Virus record (IMG/VR): IMGVR_UViG_3300047321_000238
Span: 48,297 to 112,296 of that record
Direction: 5' to 3' (one strand)
Source of the DNA: a virus
DNA: 64,000 bases
The notes under the pieces were generated by a model. That model did no database searches. It saw nothing but the letters and a program-made list of their open reading frames with translations, and was not told the DNA's origin. The position numbers and the translations under genes were made by a program. Each line of letters starts with the position of its first letter. The first letter of the stretch is position 1. Shown here in pieces: positions 4,150 through 34,309 of the stretch.

Positions 4150-4565
4150 TATTTATCACCACCAGTCTCTTCTTCTATTTCCTCTACCTTGACCATACCC
4201 TTATACTGTGGTCCGATATCTCCCATAATAGGATGTTCATCTTTATACATTTCATCTTCGATCATTTTCATCTCAGAAGGATATAGTATAAATTTAGCAC
4301 CATCTTCTTCAATTCCTAAGATTTCTAATTTAGTACAAGTGAAATAATATCCTATATTATAATCATCACTTCCGAAACTTTCTTGATATACTTCTACTCC
4401 AGTCAATTTAAATCTCTTTGTTTGTATTGAAGTAATGTCATCAAAGTACAGATGTGTCAAAATAATACCTTGAATCTTAAATCCTGATCTATCCTCATTA
4501 GGTACTCTATCAAATGTCACTTTTCCATTTACAGAAAGATCATTGTTTATTATTATGTTTGCCAT
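4149..4565 (-). CDS. hypothetical acidic protein, 138 aa
   Basis: Track ORF with AAGGGGGA RBS. First gene of the minus-strand operon. Confidence 0.55.
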   Translation of the reverse strand: MANIIINNDLSVNGKVTFDRVPNEDRSGFKIQGIILTHLYFDDITSIQTKRFKLTGVEVYQESFGSDDYNIGYYFTCTKLEILGIEEDGAKFILYPSEMKMIEDEMYKDEHPIMGDIGPQYKGMVKVEEIEEETGGDK

Positions 4566-5098
4566 GTTAAATTCCCCCTTGTTCTTTTCTTTTCTCTATA
4601 TATTACTATCTATATCTCATATATTAATAACGTCTTGCCATATATTACTTATTCTAAATATTCTATTTAATTTCCAAATATTACCTTATATAGAGATGAA
4701 AAATTTATAAAAAATAATTTTAAAAAATAGAAAAGTTGAACTTTTAAAAAAAGCCTATAGGGAAAAACGAAAAATATAAAAAATTTCTAGGGGAAGTAGG
4801 TATATATATATATGTATATATGTTGAAAATGTAGCCCCATGGGTATCATTATCATTATCAAGTTGAACTGTTTCAGTAACCGAGTTGAATGGAATAACAT
4901 GCAACGTCATGCCACAACTCATGGAGGATCATGAAAAACTTATCTCTATCTGTCAAGATAACCTTAACTTTAAAAGACTTATTAATAACTAGTACAGTAA
5001 AGGCTTATATATGTGCATACATATATAGGTCTTATAGTGTACTAGATACACAAGCAATAGACTACATATAGTAGGTGAGCATAAGGAGGACAACTAGT
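4566..5098. promoter_or_regulatory. divergent AT-rich control region between the minus-strand and plus-strand gene blocks
   Basis: 533 bp with no ORFs. Contains ATATATTAC direct repeats and a (TA)n tract at about 4800-4830. Genes diverge from it on both strands. Confidence 0.4.
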
Positions 5099-5554
5099 AT
5101 GACAACTTTATCAATGGAGGCTTTAATGAGCTTAAGCAAAGAAGAATTAGCAAGAATGGTTATGGACTTACACAAAGACACATTAACAGGATGTTATAAA
5201 AGAGAAGTATTAGATACAGTGAAACAAGACTTATACACTGTAGCGTTTGTTGATGTTAATGGATTAAAGGCTATTAATGATACACAAGGTCATGAGTATG
5301 GAGATAAGCACATACTAAGTGTAGTAGATAGTATCAATGCTAATGTAAGGAAACAAGATACTGTAGTTAGGTATGGTGGAGATGAATTCATAATCATATT
5401 CAATGACTGTAGTATAGACAATGCTAAAGGTGCTATATCTAGGATAACATCTGCATCAGTGGGTATAGCACAACATACAGACTTAGATATGGCAATTAAA
5501 CTAGCTGATATGGACATGTATAAGAACAAAAGAAACTACTATGATGTAGTATAG
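5099..5554 (+). CDS. GGDEF-domain diguanylate cyclase-like protein (no sensor domain)
   Basis: Start taken at the ATG 9 nt after AAGGAGG. Motifs FVDVNGLKAINDTQGHEYGDKHIL and RYGGDEFIIIF match the GGDEF active-site region. Confidence 0.7.
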   Translation: MTTLSMEALMSLSKEELARMVMDLHKDTLTGCYKREVLDTVKQDLYTVAFVDVNGLKAINDTQGHEYGDKHILSVVDSINANVRKQDTVVRYGGDEFIIIFNDCSIDNAKGAISRITSASVGIAQHTDLDMAIKLADMDMYKNKRNYYDVV

Positions 5555-5582
5555 ATACTCATATACGAAAGGATGAATAAAC

Positions 5583-5840
5583 ATGAAAACAACAAAGAAT
5601 GAAGCATTACTTATACTAGCACAAAGGATAATGGATCAACGTATTAAGCCTATGATAGATAAGGCTATTAGTATGGACCATGATAGTAAGCCTATAGCAT
5701 ATAGACCTGAATTAGACAATAACGATTATGCTGAATACATAGCATCTAAGGACAAGACATTAGTACACATAAATAAACACACACGAAAGGATGATGAAAC
5801 ATGCATTACTACGAATACAACGATACAGAGGACAAGATAA
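5583..5840 (+). CDS. hypothetical protein, 85 aa
   Basis: Track ORF with AGGATG RBS-like sequence upstream. Confidence 0.4.
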   Translation: MKTTKNEALLILAQRIMDQRIKPMIDKAISMDHDSKPIAYRPELDNNDYAEYIASKDKTLVHINKHTRKDDETCITTNTTIQRTR

Positions 5841-5992
5841 TCCACTTACTAGTAGCAGCAATAGGAGAAGGCTTATATAAACAAGCTATATCAGAATGTG
5901 CTATAGAGTATGGACAAGCAACAACAGATAAAGCAGTAACAGTATTTAATGAACAATACGCTAACTTAATCAGATTAATAGGAGGAAGATAA
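5801..5992 (+). CDS. hypothetical protein, 63 aa
   Basis: Track ORF with AAAGGATGA upstream. Overlaps the previous ORF by 40 nt, so one of the two starts is probably misplaced. Confidence 0.35.
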   Translation: MHYYEYNDTEDKIIHLLVAAIGEGLYKQAISECAIEYGQATTDKAVTVFNEQYANLIRLIGGR

Positions 5993-5993
5993 C

Positions 5994-6263
5994 ATGGAAA
6001 ACAGAAGAATAGAGGCAATCATGTATATGAAATTCAACAATAACGATAAAAGAGGTGCTTTATTACAAGCTAATAAGAAAGGGGTAGTAGTAGTGGACAA
6101 GCCATTTAAAGAAGTACTAAAACAAGTAGTTATAGAAAGTGCCCATATAGTAGAGGTAGCACCTATAGTAACTCATACAGAAGAAGTAGAAATAACGTTA
6201 TTATGGCAATCTCAAATACATGCTAATTACCTAAAACAAAGAGGAGGAAAACAAAATGATTAG
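5994..6263 (+). CDS. hypothetical protein, 89 aa
   Basis: Track ORF with GGAGGAAG RBS at 5982. Confidence 0.45.
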   Translation: MENRRIEAIMYMKFNNNDKRGALLQANKKGVVVVDKPFKEVLKQVVIESAHIVEVAPIVTHTEEVEITLLWQSQIHANYLKQRGGKQND

Positions 6264-6576
6264 GAAGAGCAAAACAATATTCAAATTCTTTATGAACAAG
6301 TACAATTTAGACTTATCAACTACAAAAATCTATATAATTGATCTTGTAGGAAAGAATGGTGCTTATGATTATATAGAAGATGAAGTCTATATAGATCATA
6401 CTTTAAATGCAATAACTAGAGAACTAACATTAGTACATGAACTTACTCATAAGATTGTTTATGTACTAGAGTTAGATGTTATAGATGAAGAAGCATATTG
6501 TAAAGAAGTTACATTAGAATACGTCAAACAAGAATTTAATGAAGTAGCTGTAACTTTAGTAAAAAATGAAATATAG
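6256..6576 (+). CDS. small HExxH zinc-metallopeptidase-like protein (ImmA/IrrE-like motif)
   Basis: GAGGAGG RBS. HELTH at LTLVHELTHKIV. Confidence 0.4.
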   Translation: MIRKSKTIFKFFMNKYNLDLSTTKIYIIDLVGKNGAYDYIEDEVYIDHTLNAITRELTLVHELTHKIVYVLELDVIDEEAYCKEVTLEYVKQEFNEVAVTLVKNEI

Positions 6577-6588
6577 GAGGAATTAATA

Positions 6589-6789
6589 ATGATGAAAGTA
6601 AAAGAAATAAAAACAGAACGCGTATCAAGAGAATATGTAGTTGAACAATTTGGTGAAGAAGAAGTAGCCAGAATGGAAAGAGATTGGATGTTAGGTGTCA
6701 AAAGAAAATTAGTTAAACATTCTCTTAGCACAAGAATAAAAAGAAAAGTAGTTGATTTAATTAATAGCTTATTAAACAAATTAATTTAA
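6589..6789 (+). CDS. hypothetical protein, 66 aa
   Basis: Track ORF with AGGAGG RBS. Confidence 0.4.
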   Translation: MMKVKEIKTERVSREYVVEQFGEEEVARMERDWMLGVKRKLVKHSLSTRIKRKVVDLINSLLNKLI

Positions 6790-6892
6790 TGTAGGGAATA
6801 AGGAATATGGAGAGATCTGTATTCCTTTTATCGTGCATTAAAGCACATTGGTTAGCTGTAATCCTTAATATAGCAAGAAAAGGAGAACAATT

Positions 6893-7183
6893 ATGATAAA
6901 GTACAAGGACCTAGATTCATTGGAAGGAGTTGAACTTGAGAAGGCTATTTTTGAAGTAAATCTAAATAGCATTAATGAGTTAACTCAAGAACAAAAAGCA
7001 ATCTTGTGTAAAATCAATTACAAGAAAGCAGAAGCTCAAGAACCAGAATCAGAAGTAATGTCATTGGTTGATCTAATCAGCAGTAAGTTATTCAAAAAGA
7101 AAAAGTTCAATCAAAAGAAAACAGACCTTAAAGACAGGTTACAAGGTTGTATTAAACCAATAAAAAAAGAAGGAGAGATGTAA
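6893..7183 (+). CDS. hypothetical protein, 96 aa
   Basis: Track ORF with AAAGGAG RBS. Confidence 0.45.
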   Translation: MIKYKDLDSLEGVELEKAIFEVNLNSINELTQEQKAILCKINYKKAEAQEPESEVMSLVDLISSKLFKKKKFNQKKTDLKDRLQGCIKPIKKEGEM

Positions 7184-7184
7184 T

Positions 7185-7721
7185 ATGTCAATATTAATCG
7201 TGCTAGCTATGATATGCATTATTATGGCTACAAAAGAAATCAGGAAAGAAAAAGCTCATAATAAAAAAAGAAAGGAAATCAGAAGTAAAAAACAATTAAC
7301 TTCAGTTCCAGTAGATGCTGTAGATAAGTTAAATGCATTCTTAGAAGTAGATAAGTCTAAGGATAAAGAATTTAAATTAGCTGCACTGTTTATAGAAGAC
7401 GAATCAGGACACATATCTATTGAAGATGTAGATCTTAGAGGAGATTCAGCTGAAAACATTAAGTTATCAGATTATGCTATTAATAAAAAGAAATATATAG
7501 CTGATCAAATACTATTTAATAGTAATGCTGTTAAGTTAATAGCTAATAAAGTTAATAGTATGGTAGCTGACACTGAAAGATACTATGCATTCGAAATAAC
7601 TAAAGAGAATGTGGAAGCAGGAAGACATGGAAAAACAAAGAAGAAGATAGTAAATGATTTTGTTATGTTATTAGATTTAAATGAAAAGGAACTTAAGAGA
7701 ATTGCTAATCTAAGTTTCTAA
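7185..7721 (+). CDS. hypothetical membrane-anchored protein, 178 aa
   Basis: N-terminal hydrophobic helix ILIVLAMICIIMA. GGAGAG RBS. Confidence 0.5.
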   Translation: MSILIVLAMICIIMATKEIRKEKAHNKKRKEIRSKKQLTSVPVDAVDKLNAFLEVDKSKDKEFKLAALFIEDESGHISIEDVDLRGDSAENIKLSDYAINKKKYIADQILFNSNAVKLIANKVNSMVADTERYYAFEITKENVEAGRHGKTKKKIVNDFVMLLDLNEKELKRIANLSF

Positions 7722-7749
7722 TGTAAAAGGTGAAAGGTGGATAAACAAA

Positions 7750-8367
7750 ATGGAAAACATCAATAAGAATTTAGACTTCATGGACTTAACAGGAAACGTA
7801 AAGGATATGAGAATTATCAATAATACACAAGTTGGTATATTCTCTGTTGTGCAAAAGCATTTAACAGAATCATATTTTCACACATCAAGAGGATATATCA
7901 AAGTTGATCCTGTTGTATCTATAATATGTGTTGAACATGCTAAAGGTAAAATGGAACTATTAGCTGGAATCAAGATGTTAGAAACAGTCCAAATGATTAA
8001 CTATTTGATTGAAAAGAATTTCACAATTGCTGAACTTCCTACAGAAGTTGCAAAGATCAGAAACTACAGAGCTATTATAAGAACTGTAGAAAATAAGTTG
8101 AAGTTCGAAGCTAAACAATTATTAGTAGCTAAAGAAGCAGAGAATAAAGAAATAGAGAATAAAGAAATAGAAACTACTGTAGTTGTTGAACCAATCAAAA
8201 AACAACTTCCTAAGATGAAGACTCTTTCTGATATACCTTCATATAGAGAAGTTGCTTTAACAGTTGAAGAAAAGAAGATAATGCAAAGCATTGTTCACAC
8301 TAAAGATATAGCATCATCTTTCTTCAACAAAAGTAAAATAATCAATATCTTTAGCAAAACTAAATGA
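7750..8367 (+). CDS. hypothetical protein, 205 aa
   Basis: Track ORF with GGTGAAAGGTGG RBS. Internal ENKEIENKEIE repeat. Confidence 0.5.
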   Translation: MENINKNLDFMDLTGNVKDMRIINNTQVGIFSVVQKHLTESYFHTSRGYIKVDPVVSIICVEHAKGKMELLAGIKMLETVQMINYLIEKNFTIAELPTEVAKIRNYRAIIRTVENKLKFEAKQLLVAKEAENKEIENKEIETTVVVEPIKKQLPKMKTLSDIPSYREVALTVEEKKIMQSIVHTKDIASSFFNKSKIINIFSKTK

Positions 8368-8419
8368 TAGATTATATACGTACTAAAGACAAATAAACTC
8401 CACCAGACCTTAGCAAGCA

Positions 8420-8900
8420 AATTCGCTTGAAAGGAGGTGATGCCTGGCAAGATATACGAACTTGGGTAGGCTGCTTGAACATGTTGTGCTTTTGATGCAG
8501 CAACAGTTGGTTGGGTGGGACAGAAACACAACAATGGGGGATGAAATAAACAGATTTCACTAACGAAAGGAAGAAACAAACAGAATGATATTTTCAAAAC
8601 TAAAGACGCTAAAGGAAGACTCGGCAAATTACCAACAACTATTCAGCCTGGAGGTTGATGAATTAAATTTTCTTCAATCTCTAGAAAGGAGGTTGATAAT
8701 CTAAATTTTTATCAGCCACCGAAAAGGAGGTTGGTAAGGATTATGACGTAACTTTACACATATCATTTAAGGAGGTTGATACTCACACATGGACTAATAT
8801 TAAAGGAGATGATGCTTGGCAAGAAATAGAAATGACTATAAATATGAAAGGAGGTGATGCTAAATCTAAGACTAATAAGACTACTGAAGGATTGTTCGTA
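8420..8900 (+). repeat. cluster of seven Shine-Dalgarno-like repeats (AAAGGAGGTGATGC x3, AAGGAGGTTGAT x4) with mini-ORFs
   Basis: Direct reading: 8431, 8800 and 8845 carry the GGAGGTGATGC type. 8645, 8686, 8721 and 8768 carry the GGAGGTTGR type. No ORF longer than 30 codons on the + strand. Local GC is elevated. Confidence 0.5.
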
Positions 8901-8927
8901 ATCTTTCAATGCATGGGCCTATAGTAT

Positions 8928-11900
8928 TTGAACTTAGGCACTATGAGTGACAGGGATAATGGGGTACAAATAAAAATATATGATGAAAAGGATGGATACA
9001 AAATGATAAACACAAACACATTAACTAATGGAACTACTACAACAAACACAAATGAAGGGATGGATGTACAAATGGTAAATATCAATGTAACAAACGTAGC
9101 TAAAATAGTAGGGGTATCAAATGAAGAAGTTGTAGCATTAGCTATAAGATTAGGTTTAGAAGTTTCAACATCAGGTAAGAAAATAAACAATGTTATTTCT
9201 ACTGCAATTGTAGTTGAAGCTGTTAATGATTTAATAGCTAAAGATGAAGTTGCAGTTACAAATATAGTAAACAATAATGAAGGGATGGATGTAAAAATGG
9301 TTAACAAGATTAAAGAGGAAATAATGGAAATGGTTTATTCTGAAATGAACAAGGAAATAGCTAAACAAGAAATTAGAGACGAATACTTAAACAGAGTTGC
9401 AACTGTTGCAGCTATAGTTGATGAATCTAATAAAAAGTACAAAAGAAATACTTTAAGCAAAGTAGAATTAGTTGATTATGTAGTAGCTAACAATATCGAA
9501 GTTAATGACAAAGAATTAAGAGCACTATATTCTCAATTAAATGCTGCAAGAGATAAAGAAGCTAAATCAGAATTAGTTCACAAGATCATAGATCAAATGA
9601 ATGAAGGTAAATTCACTTATAAAATGTATGCAACTGCTAATAAGTACAAGCACCTTTTATCTGAAGATGATACAATTACTTTTGAATTAGCATTAGATGT
9701 AGCTCTTAATAAGGCTTCTATGAAGAACTACAAGAACCTATTAGCTGTTAAAAGATGGACTAAAGATATCACTGTTGCATTATTAAGAAGAGTTGTTTGC
9801 TATACTGGTAATCAATATGAAACAGAAGTAGCTCCTCAAATGTTCAGTTCTCTAATCAGAGCTTGTGATGTTACAGTTAAAGATGTTGCAGATTCTAAGA
9901 TGACTTTAAATGGATACACTACTGATGAGTTACTATTATTCTCATTCGATAAAGATGTATTAAAATTAACTGGAAATAATGACAGAGAAGTATTAGCTAA
10001 AAAAGATTACCTAGCTAAAGTATTCTATATCATTGCTGGATTATCTGAACAAAAGGTTTATATAGTTGAAAGAAAATCAGGTATTGCAGATGTTTATACT
10101 AATATCAACAAGATCAAATTAAATGAAGGTGAAGTTATAAAACAATATGAATTCTTAGGAATAACTCCATCTGGTTTAAGATCTGGAACTATGACATTAG
10201 CTATCACTAAAGAAATTCACGCTGATGGAACTGTTGTTGAAAGAGATAGAAGAGTTGAAATCATGGACAAAGCTTCTGATAATTCATTCAGCATTAACTT
10301 TATCGTAGGTGCGAATGAAAATGGACAAGCTATATTCAAAGATTGCGAATCAGTACTTGATGCATTTAAAGAAATGTCTAGAATGATGTTATGTGCTACA
10401 TCTTCAAAAGTGCTTGGTAAATTAGACTCTTATGTTGTATTAGATAATTTATCTTTTGGTGCAGGATATAATGCTAAAGATACTAACTCTCCTGCTAAAA
10501 TGGGTGAAGAAAATTTCGTAGATTGTCAAGATACTACTGATGGTTTAGGATTAATATCTAATGATATGTTAAAAGAAAATCTTCAAGCTATGAACATTCC
10601 ATGCTCAATTAAAGACTTATTAGGAATGACATTCCAAGCTAGAGGTGGCGGATTAAAGATTGCTGCAATGTCAAGATCTAAAGAAGCTATTAGACTAGAA
10701 GCAAAAGCATCATTAAGCAGAGGAGCATCTGTATTAAGAGCTGTATTCAAAGGACAAGAAGTTAAAGCTAAAGATCTAACTGATGAAATGTTAGATAACA
10801 TGCAAGGATTGTTTGATGGTAATGGTATGAAGTTAATCGATCACAATGCTGAAATCGAATTAGTAATGCTTAAGAAAGCTTATTCATCTGACTCTAAATT
10901 ATCTGATGTTGTTAATATTATAATGATGGTTAATGATGAACAAGCTACTACAGCATTATTATCTTCTAAAATAAAAAGTCAAATCTTAGACAAATTAAAA
11001 GACATTGGTATAAACGTAGATTACAATGCAGAAACTGATGAAGTTATCAGCGTAAAATGTGATCTTAAGAACTTAAAAAGAATCAACAATGACAGTCAAA
11101 CAGTTGAATGGATGTTTAGATCTCTTCCTGAAACTATGATTGCATTAGCTCCTGGTGTTCAAAAGACAAACTTTAATAGCTTATTGAAAGGTTTAGCTAA
11201 CCTAATCAACGAGCTTAATGTTGAAGTTAATTGTGAATATACTGTTGTTCAATCAGATCCAGCAGTTAGATTTGGTGTAAGAATAATAAAAGAAGATGAA
11301 GTATTCTGCCCAAGCTTAATAGAAGTAAATAAAGTATCAGGTGTTAGACATCCAGTATCAAACTTATTTGCTGTTTCTACATTCAAGACACTTACTCTAA
11401 AAACTATCTTAAAGAGAATTGATAAATTGAATGTATCTCTTGAAGTTAAAAACATGTTATTTGAATTCTACAAAGGAGTAGAAGGTTATGCTATAATACC
11501 AGCATCTCACTACTACATGGAAAAACATGATGGAATGGATTTCGATATCGATGCTATGCAATTTTTCTTAGATCAAGAAGTAGTAGCAATACTTGAAAAG
11601 ACTTCTGATATAGGAACAATAATTGATAGATCTATTGATGAAGAAATGGATTGTTCTATTAAGGAATCTAATGATGACCATGCTATCAAAGCTTTCTACA
11701 AAGATATTAACAAGAAAGATTTCCACCCTATAGCTTATGATGTAAAAGTATCTGAAGAAAAGATAGCACCAGTTAAAGCATTAAAAGGAATGGTTATGCC
11801 TAAGAAGATTAATGTTGCTTCTACTGAAGATAATCATTACAAGAAAAATGCAAATGGAAGATACTCATTAGACTTCTCTTCAGTTGCTATGATGGTATTA

Positions 11901-13946
11901 GATTATTTCTTAAACCCAATAGATTCAGTTGGTATCATGGCAACAAACTTCTATAATAATGCTAAAATACTTATGGCATTAAAATCAATTAACACTGAAA
12001 TCACTAAAGAAATGAAACAATTCATAGTTCAAGGAATGAGAACAATGTTTTCTTGTAGTGGTTTAAAGAAGTATTCTTCTCCAATCAGAAAGAACAATGA
12101 CGGAACAAAATTTAACTACAACGATAGAAATAAAGTTGTTCTATGCAAAGATGTTTGTCACAAAATAATCAAAACATTTATCAACTCTAAAGGAGATTTT
12201 GCAGATTGTATTCAATTCTTAATTGATGTATGTATTTGTAGTAGATATCCAGCTGAAACTTCTATTGATAGTGCTAAGAAAATGTATAAAGTTATAAACA
12301 TGTTTGCATTATCTGGTTGTATTAAAGCTATGGGTTGTAAAAATGCTGTTAAATTCTTAAACTTTGATCCATATATGTTAGATGACCAAGGTAACTCTAT
12401 TGAAGAAGTAGAAACTACAAAAGCATTCACTAACATTATTGACATCTTTAATGCAGCTCAACCAAAAAATGCTCTACAATATTCAACAAACAATTTCTTT
12501 GGATTAAAATTAATAAAAGAAGAAATGTCATGTGTTGGTTGGGAAGATGCTGATAAGGCTATGTTAGCTTTCAATACAGAGAAAAAAGTAGCAGGTATTA
12601 AAGATCCTACTTATCTATTAAAAGAAAGACTAATGAACTTTGCTAATTCAGTTATAGTATTTGCAGCTAAAGAATTAGAAGCATTTGTTAAATCAGATGA
12701 AGCTAATGCTATCAGAAAAGAATTCAAAGGTTTCTACAATTCAGAAGATAATTATTTCAGAGTTGATAAAGTAGTATCTAACATCGTTGGTACTTATATC
12801 ACATTAACTGAATCAATCAAAGCTTCAGAAAATGATGAAATAGATGATATAACTGCAAAGAAATATCTTAAGACAAATGCATTACAAGCTCTAATGAACA
12901 CAGCTAAACTTTCATTTAAAACAGCTAGAAAACCAGTATCTGATGAAGAAATTGGAGCAGGTGTGTTCTATTATATGATTACTTCTTTTGAAAAAGAAAA
13001 AGACAATGTATGTACTTCAGTTAACTCTAAGATTCTTGATATCTTCCAAAAAGAGATATTAGCATTCTTAAAATCTAAAGGATATGATATGCTTGCTGCT
13101 GAAGAAATATTATATGCTGTTAATCCTGTAACTAACAGACAAGTTAAATTAAATACAACAGAAGGATTAACATGTTCTGCATATAATGGTCATGGTACAA
13201 TTGAATTAGAAGATGGTTCAATCTATTTATTAACTCTAAAGAATAAGAAAGCATCTTTTGATAATGGTACTATTTCTATAGTAGATGATAAGTATGTTGT
13301 TGTTCAACAAAGAAAAACTTTAGAAGAAAATATACAATCAGGATTCTACTTTGGTGCTAAAATGGAAAAAGGAATATTCAACAAAGCTAATCTTCTAATG
13401 CAAGATATTAAAAAGACTACTGGTGATTACAATGAATACAAAGCAGCATTAGCAGAAATAAATCCTAATAACATTTTAGCTGAGACACAATATGATGAAA
13501 TTCTTTTCAGAACAAGAAGAGAAATGGACGAAAGAGGAAAATCATATACAGCTAATCTTTTAATTGGTATGAAAGATGATCAAGAATGTTTAATAGCTGA
13601 GTTATACCTTAATACAATCGTTGCTCAATTATTACAAACTGCTGAGTTATCTGAAAGCAATGTAAGATTATTCATGACTGAAAATAGTTGTACTGTTAAC
13701 ATTATTGAAGACTCTCTATTAGCTGAAGTTGAATCAGTTAGCACTCCTGACACTATAAGTGATTCATTTGGATTAGATGACTTAGAAGGATTCAGTAACT
13801 CAATAATAGATTATTCTTGTTATGATGTTACTCCAGTTCAAGAAAACTATGATGAAAAACAATTCGTTGCAATTACAACAAACTACGATATTCCTCAAGT
13901 TGACATGTGCAATGACGAAAACTATTTAAATGGTTTAACTCAATAA
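8928..13946 (+). CDS. giant protein, 1672 aa, with a DFDID (DxDxD) motif; candidate two-barrel RNA polymerase-like enzyme
   Basis: Single uninterrupted ORF, track start TTG at 8928 (alternative ATGs at 8943 and 9004). Motif HDGMDFDIDAMQ resembles the beta-prime NADFDGDQM Mg-binding loop. Direct repeat NEGMDV[QK]MVN near the N-terminus. Confidence 0.8.
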   Translation: MNLGTMSDRDNGVQIKIYDEKDGYKMINTNTLTNGTTTTNTNEGMDVQMVNINVTNVAKIVGVSNEEVVALAIRLGLEVSTSGKKINNVISTAIVVEAVNDLIAKDEVAVTNIVNNNEGMDVKMVNKIKEEIMEMVYSEMNKEIAKQEIRDEYLNRVATVAAIVDESNKKYKRNTLSKVELVDYVVANNIEVNDKELRALYSQLNAARDKEAKSELVHKIIDQMNEGKFTYKMYATANKYKHLLSEDDTITFELALDVALNKASMKNYKNLLAVKRWTKDITVALLRRVVCYTGNQYETEVAPQMFSSLIRACDVTVKDVADSKMTLNGYTTDELLLFSFDKDVLKLTGNNDREVLAKKDYLAKVFYIIAGLSEQKVYIVERKSGIADVYTNINKIKLNEGEVIKQYEFLGITPSGLRSGTMTLAITKEIHADGTVVERDRRVEIMDKASDNSFSINFIVGANENGQAIFKDCESVLDAFKEMSRMMLCATSSKVLGKLDSYVVLDNLSFGAGYNAKDTNSPAKMGEENFVDCQDTTDGLGLISNDMLKENLQAMNIPCSIKDLLGMTFQARGGGLKIAAMSRSKEAIRLEAKASLSRGASVLRAVFKGQEVKAKDLTDEMLDNMQGLFDGNGMKLIDHNAEIELVMLKKAYSSDSKLSDVVNIIMMVNDEQATTALLSSKIKSQILDKLKDIGINVDYNAETDEVISVKCDLKNLKRINNDSQTVEWMFRSLPETMIALAPGVQKTNFNSLLKGLANLINELNVEVNCEYTVVQSDPAVRFGVRIIKEDEVFCPSLIEVNKVSGVRHPVSNLFAVSTFKTLTLKTILKRIDKLNVSLEVKNMLFEFYKGVEGYAIIPASHYYMEKHDGMDFDIDAMQFFLDQEVVAILEKTSDIGTIIDRSIDEEMDCSIKESNDDHAIKAFYKDINKKDFHPIAYDVKVSEEKIAPVKALKGMVMPKKINVASTEDNHYKKNANGRYSLDFSSVAMMVLDYFLNPIDSVGIMATNFYNNAKILMALKSINTEITKEMKQFIVQGMRTMFSCSGLKKYSSPIRKNNDGTKFNYNDRNKVVLCKDVCHKIIKTFINSKGDFADCIQFLIDVCICSRYPAETSIDSAKKMYKVINMFALSGCIKAMGCKNAVKFLNFDPYMLDDQGNSIEEVETTKAFTNIIDIFNAAQPKNALQYSTNNFFGLKLIKEEMSCVGWEDADKAMLAFNTEKKVAGIKDPTYLLKERLMNFANSVIVFAAKELEAFVKSDEANAIRKEFKGFYNSEDNYFRVDKVVSNIVGTYITLTESIKASENDEIDDITAKKYLKTNALQALMNTAKLSFKTARKPVSDEEIGAGVFYYMITSFEKEKDNVCTSVNSKILDIFQKEILAFLKSKGYDMLAAEEILYAVNPVTNRQVKLNTTEGLTCSAYNGHGTIELEDGSIYLLTLKNKKASFDNGTISIVDDKYVVVQQRKTLEENIQSGFYFGAKMEKGIFNKANLLMQDIKKTTGDYNEYKAALAEINPNNILAETQYDEILFRTRREMDERGKSYTANLLIGMKDDQECLIAELYLNTIVAQLLQTAELSESNVRLFMTENSCTVNIIEDSLLAEVESVSTPDTISDSFGLDDLEGFSNSIIDYSCYDVTPVQENYDEKQFVAITTNYDIPQVDMCNDENYLNGLTQ

Positions 13947-13956
13947 TATCAACATT

Positions 13957-13993
13957 AGAGTCTCATTAATTTGAGGCTCTTTTTATTTTAAAT
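13957..13993 (+). terminator. rho-independent terminator downstream of the giant gene
   Basis: AGAGUCUCA-UUAAUU-UGAGGCUCU forms a 9-bp stem (one G-U pair) followed by UUUUUAUUUU. Confidence 0.55.
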
Positions 13994-14010
13994 TTGAAAG
14001 GATGATTATA

Positions 14011-15102
14011 ATGAAAACAATTAATAACAAACAATTAGAAACAGGAAAGAAAATAGTAAATCAATTAGGAGTTAACAAAACTGCTATAGCACTAACTCAT
14101 TATAATGTAGAAAAGAACAATATTGATATCAGAATGTTTTTGTACTCAGATGAAGACATTACAATATATACAACTGGTAGATTGTTTTTAGGAACATATA
14201 AAAAGGAAGATAAAAAGTTCTCATTCGATCCTGCTACTAAACTACCTTATGTTGTAGGATGCAATAACATTAAGACTCGTAGAGAAGTTAAGGATGCTAT
14301 TAAGAAAGTATTATCTACTCATGCAGATGTATTAAAAATGAGTAATGGATACAAAAACTTAATTAATGATGTAGAGGATGTTTTACTTTATGTTATCAAG
14401 AGTGGAATTATTAAAGGCAGCTACTTACCACTTGAGGCACAACTAAAACATAATTGGATCATGAATCCAGACACAATAATTGTAGAGGGTGAGTCAGTAG
14501 CTAAACATGAAATAGCAGTAACAACAGATACTAATACAAAAACAGAAGGAGAAGTCAAAATGAATATAATGAGTGCGGCACATAAACTAAGAAAAGAAAT
14601 GGAAATAGAAGATAAAGAATATGCATCTTACAGCTATAAACTTAAAATGAAGATTGCATTAAAGTATGCATGGGATACATGTCATATTAATAAAGTAGTA
14701 GCTATTAAAGAAGTAGCTATTACTGTAGATAAAGTGATAAACATAAATACACGTAGACCAGAGCCAACAGCTAAGGATGAAGTTATGGCAAGTAAGCTTG
14801 AACCATTAACAGCTAAGTGCGACAATGGCAAGAAAAGAATCAAAGGAGAAACTTATATTGTATCCACACCAGGACACGTTAATATAGAAGATCACATTGG
14901 AACAGTGATTAAGGCTTTTGATATATCCACTCAAATATTAGGCAGAAAAACATTAGCTGAGTTAAATGTGAAATTCACTGAAAGAAAGTTTGCAGAGAGC
15001 AGATTTTACAGAGAGAATGCACATAAGTTAATTATTGTTACTAGCCATAAAGATGAATATGAACAAATTAAAAACCCAAGAGGATTTATACTTGTTAAAT
15101 AG
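14011..15102 (+). CDS. hypothetical protein, 363 aa
   Basis: Track ORF 14002. The ATG at 14011 follows AAAGGA, so it is the likelier start. Confidence 0.55.
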   Translation: MKTINNKQLETGKKIVNQLGVNKTAIALTHYNVEKNNIDIRMFLYSDEDITIYTTGRLFLGTYKKEDKKFSFDPATKLPYVVGCNNIKTRREVKDAIKKVLSTHADVLKMSNGYKNLINDVEDVLLYVIKSGIIKGSYLPLEAQLKHNWIMNPDTIIVEGESVAKHEIAVTTDTNTKTEGEVKMNIMSAAHKLRKEMEIEDKEYASYSYKLKMKIALKYAWDTCHINKVVAIKEVAITVDKVININTRRPEPTAKDEVMASKLEPLTAKCDNGKKRIKGETYIVSTPGHVNIEDHIGTVIKAFDISTQILGRKTLAELNVKFTERKFAESRFYRENAHKLIIVTSHKDEYEQIKNPRGFILVK

Positions 15103-15104
15103 TA

Positions 15105-15190
15105 TTGCCCCCTTCGGGGATAGATCAGTGCCATTCCTTCGGATAAATATAAATAAGCTCCCTCCGCTCGCAGTCCCTTCGGGAACAAAT
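15105..15190 (+). ncRNA. three C-rich UUCG-loop mini-hairpins (CC-UUCG-GG x3) in non-coding DNA
   Basis: cccccttcgggg, tccttcgga and tcccttcggga fall within 80 nt in a 28% GC genome. No long ORF fits here. Confidence 0.25.
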
Positions 15191-15213
15191 AAACTAACTT
15201 CGTTAGTAGAAAT

Positions 15214-15240
15214 AAGCTTCGCAGACTAATCGTGCGGATT
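15214..15240 (+). promoter_or_regulatory. conserved intergenic motif copy a (AAGCTTCGCAGACTAATCGTGCGGATT)
   Basis: Member of a 5-copy motif family with core TAATCATGCG flanked by CGCA/TGCG inverted repeats. Confidence 0.35.
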
Positions 15241-15296
15241 CTATGAGAGCTATATTGAAACTAAGTTCTTATTGAACTATTTAGTTCTCATAATAA

Positions 15297-15336
15297 ATTC
15301 GCTACACTCATAGTCTTAGTCATGCGTGTTATCTGA
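15297..15336 (+). promoter_or_regulatory. conserved intergenic motif copy b (degenerate)
   Basis: CGCTACACTCATAGTCTTAGTCATGCGTGTTATCTGAG. Confidence 0.3.
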
Positions 15337-15374
15337 GATTATCCTTAATCCCAAATCTCATCTTATCCCAATAA

Positions 15375-15415
15375 ACTCACTACGTTCGTAGTTTTAATCA
15401 TGCGGATATCTTGAG
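15375..15415 (+). promoter_or_regulatory. conserved intergenic motif copy c
   Basis: CACTACGTTCGTAGTTTTAATCATGCGGATATCTTGAG. Confidence 0.35.
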
Positions 15416-15580
15416 ACATTTATATGCTTACTCATAGTTATAAACTTACTTACGAGTGACATTATAAATTCAATTAGCTATTAATTAGCTACTACATACA
15501 TACAACAAGGGGGAAATAATAGGAGACTTGCGTTTAATCCATTTCTCAGGTTAAATCTATATGCTCTGTATGTATAAAAT

Positions 15581-15620
15581 AAGCTACGCAGTTTAATCAT
15601 GCGTATTATTCGTGTAACTC
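15581..15620 (+). promoter_or_regulatory. conserved intergenic motif copy d
   Basis: AAGCTACGCAGTTTAATCATGCGTATTATTCGTGTAACTC. About 90% identical to copy e at 19029. Lies 265 bp upstream of gene 15885. Confidence 0.4.
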
Positions 15621-15884
15621 TAATGCTGAAAATAGAGTGTAGACTTAGCAGGTTCTTCTATTGCTTGCTATATGTTGAACGTATAAATGGAATCCTTATA
15701 TATTATTTATGTCTGTAATAATATAAGAAGTTAGCCCAAGACATGTTGTATATATATGAGAGTGCACGCTTATGTATATATTCCTAATTAAATTATTAAA
15801 TATGTATACATCCCTACTTACGAGTGAATGTATATATATAAGAATGATTTAAGCGAAAACGAAAAAATCAAAATTTGAAAGGAA

Positions 15885-16445
15885 ATGATTAAAATGGAAA
15901 AGAGAATATTTTTAGCAACAAAGAAAGAACACACAGTAGGAGTAGTGTTTAATGTAACAGAGAATAAATGTAACAGAATTCCTACAATCGTATATGAACA
16001 CGCTGGACAAATGAATGGCTTCAGTGACACAAGACTTAGTGCAATGAGTGCATTAATAAAAGTAATTGAAGAAAATAATAGTACTGAACTTACAAATGTA
16101 GTACCAGTATTTGTTAATGAAGCATTAGCAAAGTTTATAACTGATGAAACATATAAGTTCTGGATTAAGACTGGTGCAAAAAGTACTGGTGAAGTAATTA
16201 GTGAAAATGAAATGACAATACTAAAGAAGTTCGTAGAAGTTTGGAAAGAAAAAGGAGATGACTTTGTAATCAGAGATATATTTACTTGTCGTATTAATGA
16301 TAAAGTAAAAGCTGACCCTGCAAAGATATCTAAATTCAAACCATACAGCAGACAAAATGACGCATACTGCAGATACTGTTGGGACGAAATTGCTAAACTA
16401 TATAATGAAACAGTTGAAGCATCTATAGCATCAGTTGCAGTTTAA
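15885..16445 (+). CDS. hypothetical protein, 186 aa
   Basis: Track ORF with AAAGGAAATGA RBS-like sequence. C-terminal CRYCWDE. Confidence 0.55.
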   Translation: MIKMEKRIFLATKKEHTVGVVFNVTENKCNRIPTIVYEHAGQMNGFSDTRLSAMSALIKVIEENNSTELTNVVPVFVNEALAKFITDETYKFWIKTGAKSTGEVISENEMTILKKFVEVWKEKGDDFVIRDIFTCRINDKVKADPAKISKFKPYSRQNDAYCRYCWDEIAKLYNETVEASIASVAV

Positions 16446-16547
16446 ATAAATAGATATATGAGATTGATTACTTATCGTAGTCTTTCTCATATTTTTTATG
16501 TTATTTATGTGAAAATAATAAAACAATAAGAGGAGAGAATAAATAAA

Positions 16548-16906: not shown

Positions 16907-17389
16907 ATGAAGAAACTTAATGTGTTCATAGATGGAGCATGTAAAGATGTAAAGAACAAAGAAAAAGCAATTGGTGGTTGGGGATACATAATCACTGATG
17001 AATATTTTAATGTTATCAAACAAGATAATGGCAAAATAAGAGAAGGCATCCAAGATAGTAATCGTGCAGAACTTGAAGGACTGTATCAAGCATTACTTAA
17101 GATGAAGACGTTTAAAGGAAATAATAAGTTCCATATCTATACTGATTGTGAAAGCATAGCAGATAGTTTAAATGGATATTCAGAACGTAGAGCCAATAGA
17201 GATTATTGGGATAATATAGAACCTATATGTAAAAGGTTAGCAGGACACTTTAGAATATCTCACATCGTAAGTCATCAAGTAAATGATAACGATGATAAAT
17301 TTATTGAGTATAATAATAAAGTAGACAAGCTAGCAAGAATTGGAGCAAATAGTCTAACTAAAGCACCAGTAACAAACATAGCAATATAA
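16907..17389 (+). CDS. rnh: ribonuclease H (RNase HI-like)
   Basis: VFIDGAC...IGGWGYII...SNRAELEGLYQAL...IYTDCESIA...DYW match the RNase H catalytic D-E-D-D layout. Confidence 0.75.
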   Translation: MKKLNVFIDGACKDVKNKEKAIGGWGYIITDEYFNVIKQDNGKIREGIQDSNRAELEGLYQALLKMKTFKGNNKFHIYTDCESIADSLNGYSERRANRDYWDNIEPICKRLAGHFRISHIVSHQVNDNDDKFIEYNNKVDKLARIGANSLTKAPVTNIAI

Positions 17390-18963: not shown

Positions 18964-19028
18964 GATTAAAATAGCTATTGGTAATCTACTTAATCTAATA
19001 TATAAATAATAAAATCCTATATATAAAT

Positions 19029-19065
19029 AAGCTTCGCAGTTTTAATCATGCGTATTATTTGTATA
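19029..19065 (+). promoter_or_regulatory. conserved intergenic motif copy e
   Basis: AAGCTTCGCAGTTTTAATCATGCGTATTATTTGTATA, immediately after gene 18727..18963. Confidence 0.4.
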
Positions 19066-19511
19066 TAGGTTGGACCCTTAATCCATGAAAAGACGATTGG
19101 AGCATCTACGTATGTTGGGTATCGCAAAGTTTTCATTAATCCATCCCGTTCCTTATAGTATTATGCAGGATTTAGAATTCATTCTTGCATTCCTACTATA
19201 GGGAATACCCCTAAAAAGACTCAATCTTGCAAGAAAAAGAAAACCAACTTTCAGAATTACTATTATTGTGGAATAGATTATAATATATGCAAATATATTT
19301 TTAAGCTATCTTAACACAATTATGGTTAATTTTTTTCAGAGTTGGACACTAGTGTAATATATATAACACCAATTAACAGCTAACGCAGTTATGGAAATAA
19401 CACTTTGATATAGCTTAAAGTATATTTGCTGTTAATACACAATTCGTACTTACGAGTGCCGTAGATGCATATGCGACATAAAGTTAAGATGGATTTGTGC
19501 TTCCGAGTGCG

Positions 19512-19693
19512 AGCGTTAGCGAGCACGTATAATTAAATAGCGTTAGCGTCAATTATATAATAGCGTTAGCGTCAAAATTAAATAAAGCGTTAGCGTAGAT
19601 TTATAAATAGATATAATCTTCTATAGTATACCCATACTATTATGAAGTATATCGTCCTACAATTCCATTCAGTGACAGTTATAGCGTTAGCGT
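19512..19693 (+). repeat. iteron-like array: 5 direct copies of AGCGTTAGCG(T/A) spaced 13-26 bp apart, with a more distant fifth copy
   Basis: Copies at 19512, 19539, 19562, 19586 and 19683, embedded in AT-rich DNA inside a 1.1-kb ORF-free region (18964..20055). Confidence 0.5.
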
Positions 19694-20055
19694 TTAATAA
19701 CAAGCGTAGAATCGATTGTATCATCTATTAAGAGTAGCCATGTGTATACATACTACTAAACTTTAATAGATGCAACGTTGAACACGTAGTGCGAAACACA
19801 ATAAAATTATAATAATTTCTCTATACCTACCTAGCAGAATGTAAGTGATGTGGTAGTAGAGGATTAGGAGTCATATCTCCGTTTTAAAGAAATGGCACTC
19901 GTAGACCTGAACCAAGACGGTTTTGGGACGTAATCGGTGCTTTCACGTTATAATGGATATAAGCGTAGTGAGTAGTCTAAAAACGAACGGATTACTATTA
20001 CAGTAGTATATATACTTATATACACACATGGAATAAAAATAAAGGAGATTATAAT

Positions 20056-20303: not shown

Positions 20304-20636
20304 ATGGAAGTATTAAAGTATATTAATGATACGTTAGTATCATATACATTAGCTGAACTATATGATAATAGAATAGGAATATCTGTAAGTAACGTAGAAG
20401 AGTTTATAGACATAATCGATAAATTAGATGCAACAGGTTTAGTGTATATGCCTACCGATGTAAAACGAGATAAGGTAGCATTGTACAATAGAGGTACAAG
20501 TAAAAATAGTTGTATATTAATAGAAAGAAGACCTGACCTAGGTAAATGTGAATATATATTAAGGTATTATTCAGAAGACTATGTAACTATGTATGCTGGC
20601 ACTATAAAGAAGTATAGTGAGGTGACATTAGTATAA
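20304..20636 (+). CDS. MELLKYIN-leader family small protein (MEVLKYIND)
   Basis: Conserved N-terminus. AAAGGA RBS. Tandem with the following family members. Confidence 0.65.
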   Translation: MEVLKYINDTLVSYTLAELYDNRIGISVSNVEEFIDIIDKLDATGLVYMPTDVKRDKVALYNRGTSKNSCILIERRPDLGKCEYILRYYSEDYVTMYAGTIKKYSEVTLV

Positions 20637-20956
20637 TGGAGTTGTTAAAGCATATTAATGATATGGCAAATACGTATACTATAAGTAAGCTGTTAAATAC
20701 AAACGCTATAGTACAGTGTGATAGTAAAGAAGAGTTTATGCAGTTAATATATAAGATAAACTGTACATCGTATCTACATACAACCCTTAGTGGTAGTACA
20801 TGGGATATTTATAATAACCAGGATAGATATAATGGAAGTATGGCAATATACTTTAACAGTAGACATCTAGAGTTTTGTTACGTAGATTATTATAAAACAT
20901 ATAGACGTAAGAACCCTAAGTATAAGTATAGTGAAGTAAATATAGTAACTATATAG
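20636..20956 (+). CDS. MELLKYIN-leader family small protein (MELLKHIND)
   Basis: Conserved N-terminus. TAATG overlap with the upstream gene. Confidence 0.65.
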   Translation: MELLKHINDMANTYTISKLLNTNAIVQCDSKEEFMQLIYKINCTSYLHTTLSGSTWDIYNNQDRYNGSMAIYFNSRHLEFCYVDYYKTYRRKNPKYKYSEVNIVTI

Positions 20957-20965
20957 AGTATGCAG

Positions 20966-20996
20966 AGTTTTTCTTCTGCACGCGAACATATGTTTA
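20966..20996 (+). promoter_or_regulatory. palindrome-containing intergenic element copy 1 (GTTTTTCTTCTGCACGCGAACATATGTTTAT)
   Basis: Contains the perfect palindrome AAACATATGTTT. Repeats at 23149 and 23498. Confidence 0.4.
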
Positions 20997-21023
20997 TTAT
21001 ATGAAAGGAGATTAAGCAAGTCT

Positions 21024-21371
21024 ATGAGTATAGAGTTATTAGATTATATAAATAAGAATAGTAAAAAGTCTTATACTATACAACAGATGATAGATGATAA
21101 GATAGCAATTCAAGTATGTAGTAGAGAAGAGTTGCAAAATCTTATAGATATAAGAAGTAGTCATGGTTGTATTGGGTGTACAGTAGAATCATGGGATACG
21201 TATGTAATAAAATATAACAAAAAGAGATATAATGGTCGGATGTGTTTAGCATTTCAAAGACCAGGATTTCTTGATTTCTGTGATACAGGATATTATCTAA
21301 ACCAAGGATATACTATAGTGCCTTATACAAGTCTAGTTATAATAGATAGTGATAAGGTGGTGTTAATATAA
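21024..21371 (+). CDS. MELLKYIN-leader family small protein (MSIELLDYINK)
   Basis: Family N-terminus shifted by 2 aa. C-terminal Y-L-N-Q-G-Y-T-I motif shared with other members. Confidence 0.6.
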   Translation: MSIELLDYINKNSKKSYTIQQMIDDKIAIQVCSREELQNLIDIRSSHGCIGCTVESWDTYVIKYNKKRYNGRMCLAFQRPGFLDFCDTGYYLNQGYTIVPYTSLVIIDSDKVVLI

Positions 21372-21688
21372 TGGAAGTATTAAGTCATATTAATAATATA
21401 CAAAGGTTTAGTATGTCAGACTTTATAGATAAAGGATATGTAATAAAGGTATGTCATAGAGCTGGACTAGAAGCTATAGTAGAGTATTTAGATAATCATG
21501 GTGTAGAAGTTAACGATGATATACGTGGAGCTGATGATAGAAGATGTGAATACTTATGTTTAAGACTAGGAGGATGGACAGATAAGAGTGGTAACATAAC
21601 AGGTTATTGTGCATGGCAAGCAAACTATGAACACTATAAGAGTAGAGGATGTACTATGTACGATTATGATGAGGTGGTGTTAGTATAA
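21371..21688 (+). CDS. MELLKYIN-leader family small protein (MEVLSHINN)
   Basis: Conserved N-terminus. TAATG overlap with the upstream gene. Confidence 0.65.
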   Translation: MEVLSHINNIQRFSMSDFIDKGYVIKVCHRAGLEAIVEYLDNHGVEVNDDIRGADDRRCEYLCLRLGGWTDKSGNITGYCAWQANYEHYKSRGCTMYDYDEVVLV

Positions 21689-21689
21689 T

Positions 21690-22512: not shown

Positions 22513-22519
22513 AAATATC

Positions 22520-23142: not shown

Positions 23143-23148
23143 ACAACG

Positions 23149-34308: not shown

Positions 34309-34309
34309 G

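Follow-up and report, generated by a model that had tools for sequence, protein, structure and literature searches.

Single-chain RNA polymerases (RNAPs) with two double-psi beta-barrels (DPBBs) are few, and each case studied so far explains how a phage escapes the transcription machinery of its host. According to published accounts, YonO of the Bacillus prophage SPbeta is a single chain carrying DxDGD and R-x-P motifs, as are the RdRP-like "putative RNA polymerases" encoded by phages of Faecalibacterium, Lactococcus and actinobacteria, all of them phages of Gram-positive bacteria; terminal DNA-binding modules were reported for the FP_oengus group. [quoted passage not shown] Eight invariant residues of two-barrel RNAPs were listed by Ruprich-Robert and Thuriaux (2010; PMC2919709), and in barrel B the acidic and the two basic residues are D837, K979 and K987 in Rpb2 and D709, R738 and K743 in QDE-1 (PMC2919709).

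Here we analysed a stretch of 64 kb (the window) from an uncultivated large (jumbo) phage that probably infects a member of the Clostridia (Bacillota). A giant gene in this window was found to encode, with a probability that we put at about 85%, a single-chain two-barrel RNA polymerase of the phage. The enzyme type is already known; the sequence family is previously unannotated.

The giant gene and its surroundings

The open reading frame (ORF) at 8928-13946 of the plus strand, 1672 aa if read from TTG, was present as the first-pass annotation had described it. This ORF is the largest of the window, far exceeding the next one (684 aa), and surpasses the median length (about 110 aa by a crude gene call) about 15-fold, not 12-fold as had been stated. 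Among the three start codons that had been proposed, TTG 8928 and ATG 8943 were located correctly, whereas the third lies at 9003 and not at 9004. This ATG 9003 is the best-supported start codon, since the public gene call P0001 (1647 aa) starts there, the N-termini of the homologues line up with it, and it is preceded by AAAAGGATGG, a similar sequence being found before the start of the ORF at 6256 (repeat D13). ATG 8943 was chosen in a JGI gene call (P0154, 1667 aa). Residues are numbered from ATG 9003, and the features are collected in Table 1.

Table 1. Features of the giant gene, its product and the adjoining downstream sequence
Feature	Position (nt)	Strand	Details
Giant gene	9003..13946 (including stop codon)	+	1,647 aa from the favoured ATG 9003
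N-terminal extension, residues 1-269	9003..9809	+	Outside the modelled range
Polymerase core, residues 270-1440	9810..13322	+	AlphaFold model, pLDDT 86.8 / pTM 0.84
Predicted beta-like barrel DPBB-B, about residues 378-559 (approximate boundaries)	10134..10679	+	Model strand pattern, invariance, profile alignment to QDE-1/RDR
Marks of DPBB-B	D513, 10539-10541; R547, 10641-10643; K552, 10656-10658		Also TPSGLRS, residues 388-394
Putative inter-barrel connector, about residues 560-740 (about 180 residues)	10680..11222	+	Analogy with the QDE-1 and gp66 connector
Predicted beta-prime-like barrel DPBB-A, about residues 741-855	11223..11567	+	Model, conservation, profile alignment
Marks of DPBB-A	R782-H-P784, 11346-11354; D846-F-D848-I-D850, 11538-11552
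Variable insertion, residues 914-942	11742..11828	+	pLDDT <50; gapped and variable in the homologue alignment
Candidate bridge helix, residues 958-994, FSSVAMMVLDYFLNPIDSVGIMATNFYNNAKILMALK	11874..11984	+	Model helices 689-700 and 707-725 (model numbering), conservation
C-terminal tail, residues 1441-1647	13323..13943	+	Partly acidic; outside the modelled range; no family match
Terminator-like hairpin	13957..13990	+	9-bp stem, then T-run; 11 nt past the stop codon of the giant gene
Syntenic downstream gene, 366 aa	14002..15102	+	347-459 aa in relatives; always directly after the polymerase gene

A 248-kb contig on record encodes the same protein, and relatives were carried by IMG/VR contigs of 154-247 kb as well as by contigs of 248 and 259 kb. 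A terminase is encoded upstream of the giant gene and was counted in favour of phage origin. Synteny around the polymerase gene was kept in five loci; the product of the 366-aa downstream gene, which matched no family, is possibly a partner of the polymerase. The neighbours of the giant gene gave no PHROG or Pfam match. A second RNAP paralogue was sought by six-frame HMM search in the window and in five related loci, without success; P0057, scanned against IMG/VR for the same purpose, gave no match, and a scan for the pattern GMDFDGD returned 96 matches, none of which fell on the three contigs carrying the giant-protein family.

Sigma-70-like promoters were not enriched in 4400-16500 (54 found, 70.6 expected). 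Since the k-mer TATATAAATAAGCT showed no enrichment over chance, it was set aside as a possible general promoter. Just downstream of the giant gene, two long structured non-coding regions share a motif. Elements of the form AAATAAGCT..CGCAG..TTAATCATGCG lie at 15151-15606 and 19025-19055. Rfam at its gathering threshold gave no match in the whole window, and no gene was found by a tRNA scan.

Relatives and sequence searches

The searches were carried out with the giant protein itself and with its 5-sequence and 35-sequence profiles. In Pfam no match above threshold was obtained (MFE-2 appeared at sub-threshold level only), and the protein gave no match to the RdRP family PF05183 at E ≤ 1, thus lying below the gathering score of this cellular family. 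PHROGs returned nothing, INPHARED phages gave no match by tblastn or megablast, and PDB sequences searched by phmmer and hmmsearch yielded either nothing or insignificant matches to TAF4 and Rho. No DNA polymerase or T7-type RNAP family was detected in Pfam or PHROGs.

An exhaustive HMMER profile search recovered about 36 full-length relatives, none of which carries a name beyond "hypothetical", and with the family profile more than 100 distant relatives (113 listed) were reached, in which the motif takes the form D[FY]DxD. Among the first 60 of these 113, every relative spanning the region contained D-x-D-x-D, and seven short fragments (64-365 aa) were without it. The family and the distant relatives aligned by hhalign over 924 columns with a probability of 100% (E=2.6e-64). 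PF05183 was matched by 5 of 46 distant relatives (best 5.8e-10), and at both barrel motifs the distant-relative profile could be aligned with QDE-1 and plant RDR. As the giant protein itself stays below the Pfam, PHROG and PDB sequence thresholds, its homology rests on the predicted structure together with this transitive profile link.

Predicted fold

When AlphaFold was run with a 5-sequence alignment, the model was unusable (pLDDT 42); an alignment of 35 diverse homologues gave a pLDDT of 86.8 and a pTM of 0.84. In the latter model two double-psi beta-barrel domains, the criterion of the superfamily, form the predicted core. The combination of AlphaFold and Foldseek that had been recommended as a check thus returned a two-barrel polymerase fold, and neither the absence of double-psi barrels nor homology to a tail or tape-measure family, the two outcomes named beforehand as refuting the idea, was encountered. 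The first 25 Foldseek matches in the PDB were all QDE-1, RDR2, crAss gp66, P32 gp64 or P74 gp62 (E=8e-11 for QDE-1 and 5.7e-6 for gp66), and the top matches in BFVD (E=7.5e-15) were phage proteins that bear the name "RNA dependent RNA polymerase". The similarity to QDE-1/RDR was the strongest among all families compared. By its modelled structure, the protein probably belongs in one clade with QDE-1, RDR, SPbeta YonO, crAss-like gp66 and the P23-45-type phage RNAPs.

Catalytic residues and domain layout

The DFDID loop on which the original proposal had been built was found in HYYMEKHDGMDFDIDAMQFF. A lone DxDxD is not significant, since chance alone would give 0.59 for a protein with this size and composition. 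Through a chain of profile alignments via the distant relatives, however, DFDID falls on the catalytic GGDYDGD of QDE-1, and its three Asp are invariant, which supports its reading as the Mg2+ loop of a double-psi barrel. Candidate equivalents were obtained for all eight defining two-barrel residues: D513, K552, R782, P784, D846, D848 and D850 are invariant in 35/35 homologues (23-64% identity), and R547 is kept in 33/35. The fourth residue of the motif is Ile, again in 33 of the 35. With these invariant residues, the predicted fold and the profile link to QDE-1, the guess of a single-chain two-barrel RNAP is supported.

In DPBB-B, D513 and the basic residues R547 and K552 lie within TTDG...FQARGGGLK, which aligns via the distant-relative profile to 'DGIG..IS ... 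Q.R.G..KG' of QDE-1/RDR. The connector carries the invariant residues D605, N607 and K610. The alignments suggest an active site in which the three Asp would face K552 and R547. Residues 958-994, with G977 invariant and Y984-N985-N986 near-invariant, are a candidate bridge helix in the model.

The N-terminal direct repeat that had been noticed was confirmed, with NEGMDV at residues 17-22 (nt 9051-9068) and again at 92-97 (nt 9276-9293). Both copies, which lie in the N-terminal extension, belong to the motif NEGMDVxMVN, and the form N-E-G-[MV]-D/E-V-x-M is present in one to three N-terminal copies in the closest relatives P0002-P0008 except P0005. Residues of about 25-75 could possibly form a small helix-extension-helix or Rho_N-like DNA-binding module; a weak precomputed Rho_N match was seen in the homologue P0005 only, and neither IF2_N (E=0.074) nor Rho (E=1.6) was significant.

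Proposed function and alternatives

As judged from the predicted fold and the sequence, the N-proximal beta-like barrel would provide D513, R547 and K552, and after a 180-residue connector the beta-prime-like barrel would give R782-x-P784 and the D846/D848/D850 triad. This triad would hold the catalytic Mg2+, the basic residues may grip the RNA 3' end together with the incoming NTP, and helix 958-994 would serve as the bridge helix. By analogy with YonO, gp66 and P23-45 gp64/gp96, phage DNA would be copied into RNA without the host RNAP, and one temporal class of phage genes would be transcribed from phage-specific signals. The protein is thus, on this analogy, most likely a DNA-dependent RNAP that transcribes the genes of the phage without recourse to the host enzyme. 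QDE-1-like enzymes copy RNA and single-stranded DNA too, which counts against this reading.

We lean, at about even odds, towards the polymerase being a non-virion enzyme, made early and serving later genes, because its gene is the first in a plus-strand block of small genes of early and auxiliary type, lies opposite the terminase-containing block and has its own terminator-like hairpin, and because the structure is nearest to clamp-bearing enzymes. The Ile at the fourth motif position and the long N- and C-terminal extensions argue against this assignment. There is a smaller though appreciable chance that the same enzyme is packaged in the virion and injected with the DNA to transcribe the earliest genes, as are crAss-like gp66, N4 vRNAP and P23-45 gp96; the NEGMDV repeats would then be maturation-protease sites (cut after Glu) or a packaging signal. 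This would agree with the identity of DFDID to gp66 1361-1365 and the conserved non-Gly fourth residue, with a length of 1,647 aa including extensions of about 270 aa at the N-terminus and about 200 aa at the C-terminus, with the conserved short N-terminal motif and with the lack of sigma-70-like promoter enrichment in 4400-16500; characterised jumbo phages such as phiKZ and AR9 are reported to have virion RNAPs. However, the gene lies among small early-type genes on the strand opposite the terminase block, whereas the phi14:2 vRNAP gene is co-directional among tail and virion genes; moreover, the neighbours gave no PHROG or Pfam match to a gp65-like zincin protease, and the window did not yield a second RNAP paralogue.

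An RNA- or single-stranded-DNA-templated polymerase resembling QDE-1/RDR, which would make non-coding or double-stranded RNA and not act as a general transcriptase, is improbable. In its favour, the protein matches RNAi RdRPs best in structure, relatives match the Pfam RdRP family, the two structured non-coding regions with a common motif lie just downstream, gp66 prefers single-stranded DNA in vitro, and phi14:2 makes long non-coding RNAs in abundance; on the other hand, YonO, gp66 and P23-45 gp64/gp96, the phage members studied, are all reported to be DNA-dependent transcriptases of phage genes. We know of no dsRNA biology in tailed dsDNA phages. That the protein is a DNA polymerase or primase with two barrels like archaeal PolD DP2 is very improbable, DP2 not being the closest fold match. 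Least probable of all is a structural role, in the tail, as tape measure or as an internal virion protein, or a role in ejection, with a chance DxDxD; the giant ORF adjoins a structural block and the chance expectation given above would allow it, but no tail, tape-measure or other structural family was matched in Pfam or PHROGs, and the fold search, with a confident globular two-barrel polymerase fold and conserved catalytic residues, effectively refutes it.

The giant-protein family has no representation in Pfam, PHROG, UniProt or NCBI, the cluster members looked up being unnamed or "hypothetical protein", and apparently supplies the transcription enzyme for a clade of uncultivated phages of 100-260 kb. 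Its alignment is a profile usable to annotate such phages. The enzyme itself is compact, directly testable and predicted to be probably rifampicin-insensitive.

Comparison with known polymerases

The phi14:2 gp66 (PDB 6VR4) and the giant protein are both giant single-chain phage enzymes of the QDE-1-like clade, with an identical DFDID pentapeptide and R-x-P upstream of it. In gp66 the Ile at the fourth motif position, shared by the giant protein, goes with an inactive pre-packaging conformation. However, gp66 is longer (2,180 aa versus 1,647 aa), its gene lies among tail and virion genes with gp65 and gp67 as neighbours, unlike that of the giant protein, and no orthology was detected by INPHARED tblastn, PHROGs or hhalign (probability 0.3%), DFDID alone being shared.

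In the P23-45 family, which comprises RNAPs of thermophilic siphoviruses without sequence similarity to the giant protein, P74 gp62 and P32 gp64 are non-virion enzymes of only about 590 aa, and P23-45 gp96 is a virion RNAP which, unlike the giant protein, is fused to the tape-measure protein. YonO (839 aa) heads a late operon on the structural-gene strand, whereas the giant gene lies opposite the terminase block. The distant-relative profile aligned to YonO with the N-terminal/DPBB-B part and DNDGD in register; the hhalign probabilities against this single sequence were not significant (1.2% for the family, 7% for the distant relatives), and the HMM E-value of about 1e-3 applies to a 3-sequence database only. 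Two distant relatives used as tblastn queries found no match in INPHARED.

QDE-1 of Neurospora and Thielavia and plant RDR2 are, like the giant protein, single chains ordered DPBB-B, connector, DPBB-A. They have in common with it the DPBB-B signature DG..(I)S ... Q.R.G(G).K, with an R-to-K spacing of 5 (D513 to R547 spans 34 residues, against 29 in QDE-1), and R-x-P followed by DxDxD in DPBB-A. Identity is only 9-12%, the fourth motif residue is Ile and not Gly, about 45 more residues separate R-x-P from DxDxD, and the giant protein has additional N- and C-terminal regions. Since it is phage-encoded, unlike QDE-1 and RDR2, DNA-dependent transcription is expected of it. This unusually extensive structural likeness to QDE-1/RDR bears on the proposed phage origin of eukaryotic RNAi polymerases.

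Start codon and N-terminal motif of the giant ORF

The giant ORF recorded by the first-pass annotation was found in place (see the table) and was the single outsized ORF of the window, in which the second largest encodes 684 aa and the median gene, by a crude gene call, about 110 aa. The three start candidates proposed earlier were retained, except that the third lies at ATG 9003 and not at 9004. This start is the best supported, because the public gene call P0001 (a record of the same protein, 1647 aa) begins there, the N-termini of homologues align to it, and the preceding sequence (AAAAGGATGG...AAAATG) is similar to the stretch ahead of another ORF's start; ATG 8943 is the start in a JGI gene call. 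The reported N-terminal repeat was also recovered, as NEGMDV at residues 17-22 and 92-97, and the closest relatives carry one to three copies of this short motif in their own N-termini. The segment said to resemble the metal-binding loop, HYYMEKHDGMDFDIDAMQFF, was found as described. A protein of this kind would contain 0.59 DxDxD matches by chance alone, so the motif by itself means little, and the weight of DFDID rests on conservation and fold.

A gap of 635 nt precedes the polymerase gene and contains repeated Shine-Dalgarno-like words. Relatives also have a long gap at the matching position, with GC-rich conserved blocks common to those of two loci (L002 and L004). Possible readings of the gap are a leader, a region of small ORFs and an RNA element.

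Relatives and signature residues

The giant protein matched no entry of Pfam, PHROGs, the PDB sequences or the INPHARED phages, and only five relatives turned up when 5.8 billion proteins were searched through a word index. An exhaustive HMMER search, in which 1.84 billion cluster representatives were compared with a profile of residues 270-1440, gave 188 proteins in two tiers: about 36 full-length relatives of 1,350-1,700 aa, and more than 100 proteins of 600-1,800 aa matching the central 400 positions only. Profile comparison shows clear homology between the two tiers over 924 columns (hhalign probability 100%, E 2.6e-64), and D[FYW]D.D was present in every second-tier protein long enough to span the region among the first 60 checked. 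The Pfam RdRP family PF05183 was matched by 5 of 46 second-tier proteins (best E 5.8e-10). Two stretches of the second-tier profile aligned with QDE-1 and plant RDR chains, ...faDGmafis...alQaRpgsvKgf... against QDE-1 ...NDGIGRMS...IQGRMGSAKGM..., and ...PAs..l..laGmDfDgD... against ...PAKG..LADKLSGGDYDGD...; the corresponding segments in the window's protein are TTDGLGLIS...FQARGGGLK and PASHYYMEKHDGMDFDID.

The signature of two-barrel RNA polymerases comprises an Asp and two basic residues in barrel B, the beta-like barrel (QDE-1 D709, R738, K743), and R-x-P plus DxDxD in barrel A, the beta-prime-like barrel (QDE-1 R962, P964, D1007, D1009, D1011) (PMC2919709). The equivalents in the giant protein are D513, R547, K552, R782, P784, D846, D848 and D850, with the same R-to-K spacing of 5 in barrel B as in QDE-1. 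In the alignment of 35 family members, which are 23-64% identical to the query, seven of these eight residues were invariant; R547 is Arg in 33 of 35 homologues, and a 2-column shift of the alignment seems to explain the other two.

Predicted structure

AlphaFold gave a pLDDT of 42 with five sequences; a model of residues 270-1440 built with 35 homologues reached pLDDT 86.8 and pTM 0.84. When this model was searched against the PDB with Foldseek, the first 22 matches were QDE-1 or RDR2 chains (E 8e-11 to 1e-6), followed by crAss phi14:2 gp66 (5.7e-6) and then P32 gp64 and P74 gp62. Structure comparison scored ZmRDR2 at 12.9 and P74 gp62 at 12.0, followed by RPB1 (9.4), M. tuberculosis beta-prime (9.3), RPA1 (9.2), Vaccinia rpo147 (9.1), archaeal A' (9.0), AR9 beta-prime (8.8), phiKZ055 (8.3), P23-45 gp96 (7.5), designed DPBB domains (7.3), gp66 (7.0, 609 residues) and PolD DP2 (6.4). 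Among predicted viral structures, the best matches were uncultured gut phage proteins named 'RNA dependent RNA polymerase' in UniProt (E 7.5e-15, 1.1e-11), with phi14:2 gp66 and crAss-like proteins ranking lower. Neither of the outcomes that the first-pass annotation named as refuting, an absence of double-psi barrels or a structural family, came out. The reading as a single-chain two-barrel RNA polymerase is supported by signature residues, predicted fold and the profile link to QDE-1/RDR. On sequence and model, the protein very probably has a catalytically competent two-barrel polymerase fold.

Gene neighbourhood and role of the polymerase

The carrier is a phage: upstream of the polymerase gene lies a minus-strand block, with a terminase at its distal end. 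The IMG/VR viral contigs that carry relatives measure 154, 245 and 247 kb, a relative also lies on a 258,779-bp contig, and a 247,883-bp JGI contig holds an identical protein; the carriers are jumbo phages. The host is probably a Clostridia bacterium, because one relative's contig was binned with a Lachnospiraceae MAG and the window carries DUF444 and DUF1256. Both families are associated with sporulation in Bacillota, a hint that the host is a spore-forming member of that group. Five loci share one gene order, in which a minus-strand block and a divergent junction are followed by a few small genes on the plus strand, a gap of 0.4-1 kb, the polymerase gene and a 350-460-aa gene of unknown function. 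A terminator-like hairpin lies downstream of the polymerase stop codon. Sigma-70-like promoters were not enriched in the polymerase region (54 found against 70.6 expected), and no second RNAP paralogue turned up when the window and five related loci were searched.

The best explanation of the whole, at a probability of roughly 0.85, is a phage RNA polymerase transcribing phage DNA. In sequence and predicted fold, the single chain runs from barrel B through a connector to barrel A with all catalytic residues intact. By family resemblance, the Asp triad would perform two-metal catalysis, R547, K552 and R782 would contact the NTP and the RNA 3' end, and residues 958-994 (invariant G977, near-invariant Y984-N985-N986) would form the bridge helix. 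As in studied phage relatives, which include P23-45 gp64/gp96, it would carry out DNA-dependent transcription of one class of phage genes without host RNAP; gp66 transcribes early genes and is rifampicin-resistant, and YonO transcribes late genes.

Packaging of the polymerase in the virion would fit the protein's size and terminal extensions, its conserved N-terminal motif and the gp66-like Ile in DFDID (33 of 35 homologues). A non-virion enzyme, towards which we lean only slightly, would fit the position of the gene and the fold, which comes closer to that of clamp-bearing enzymes; packaging is the somewhat less likely reading.

Other features of the window

Features of the window with their positions
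Position	Feature	Remark
8368-9002	gap
8650, 8688, 8724, 8769	AAGGAGGTTGAT	in gap
8428, 8800, 8845	TGAAAGGAGGTGATGC	in gap
8928-13946 (+)	giant ORF	1672 codons from TTG
11538-11552	DFDID	residues 846-850
15103-15884	no ORF >=50 aa	782 nt
18964-20055	no ORF >=50 aa	1,092 nt
15100-15420	several UUCG-type hairpins	z = -3.9
15226, 15316, 15394, 15593, 19042 (+)	TTAATCATGCG[GT]AT
19512-19692	AGCGTTAGCG array	five exact copies
20304-26070 (+)	tandem paralogues	at least 13, ~105 aa
26795-27421	DUF444
52676-53224	DUF1256
33299-34075	metallo-beta-lactamase fold
34274-35071, 38406-39035, 40360-41928	ABC transporter parts	permease, ATPase, substrate-binding protein
35368-37422	684-aa ORF	no match
49798-51228, 56846-57535, 60184-61257, 61258-61836, 62372-62824	NAD-related cluster	NAPRTase-family enzyme, PnuC-type NMN transporter, NadR-like AAA_28 protein, NUDIX hydrolase, Macro domain
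5075-5554, 16907-17389, 44133-44861, 55502-56068, 58674-59552, 31515-32525	further genes, listed jointly with DUF444 and DUF1256	GGDEF domain, RNase H, guanylate kinase, dCMP/cytidine deaminase, radical SAM, SPFH/Band 7

The two non-coding regions, which closely follow the polymerase operon, may represent non-coding RNAs, phage promoters or both; Rfam and ARAGORN found nothing in them. The hairpin stretch folds better than 100 of 100 shuffles, and the TTAATCATGCG[GT]AT motif, often preceded by AAATAAGCT.CGCAG, is confined to these regions. The AGCGTTAGCG copies in the longer region (23-27-nt spacing, the fifth 97 nt further on; 0.43 matches expected by chance) look iteron-like and may mark a replication origin or an array of regulator-binding sites.

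The tandem paralogues (pairwise identity 25-47%, E down to 1e-12) had no family match. The NAD cluster, whose NadR-like protein has a weak cytidylyltransferase-like match at its N-terminus, resembles a set of phage genes for NAD+ salvage or reconstitution and may serve counter-defence. The metallo-beta-lactamase-fold protein matched the anti-Pycsar nuclease Apyc1 below threshold (E 1.2e-8, with 35 bits where 50 are required) and is a possible cyclic-nucleotide-degrading anti-defence gene. The 522-aa ABC substrate-binding protein is NMT1/THI5-like with an OmpA domain fused C-terminally, and the 684-aa ORF lies between the transporter parts.

Comparison with known systems

In kind the polymerase is already known, as a phage single-chain two-barrel RNAP of the QDE-1/YonO/crAss clade, the 'second clade' of Chaban et al. 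Among the sources searched, it represents an undescribed sequence family: no Pfam or PHROG model exists for it, none of ten cluster representatives checked showed an NCBI or UniProt accession, and significant similarity to YonO or gp66 was not found. The exact DFDID pentapeptide is shared with gp66; the giant protein fails the orthology test and its gene the gene-context test. Back-translated G-M-D-F-D-G-D occurred in 96 stretches of IMG/VR viral contigs (loci L010-L089, many 60-230 kb), none of them on the three contigs carrying this family; these motif matches hint that two-barrel polymerases of the RdRP/YonO type may be common in uncultivated phages. Within phages of Gram-positive bacteria, the closest analogues described are putative RdRP-like RNAPs with DNA-binding domains at their termini, previously noted in Faecalibacterium, Lactococcus and actinobacterial phages. 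The extensive resemblance to QDE-1 bears on the proposed phage origin of the RNAi polymerases.
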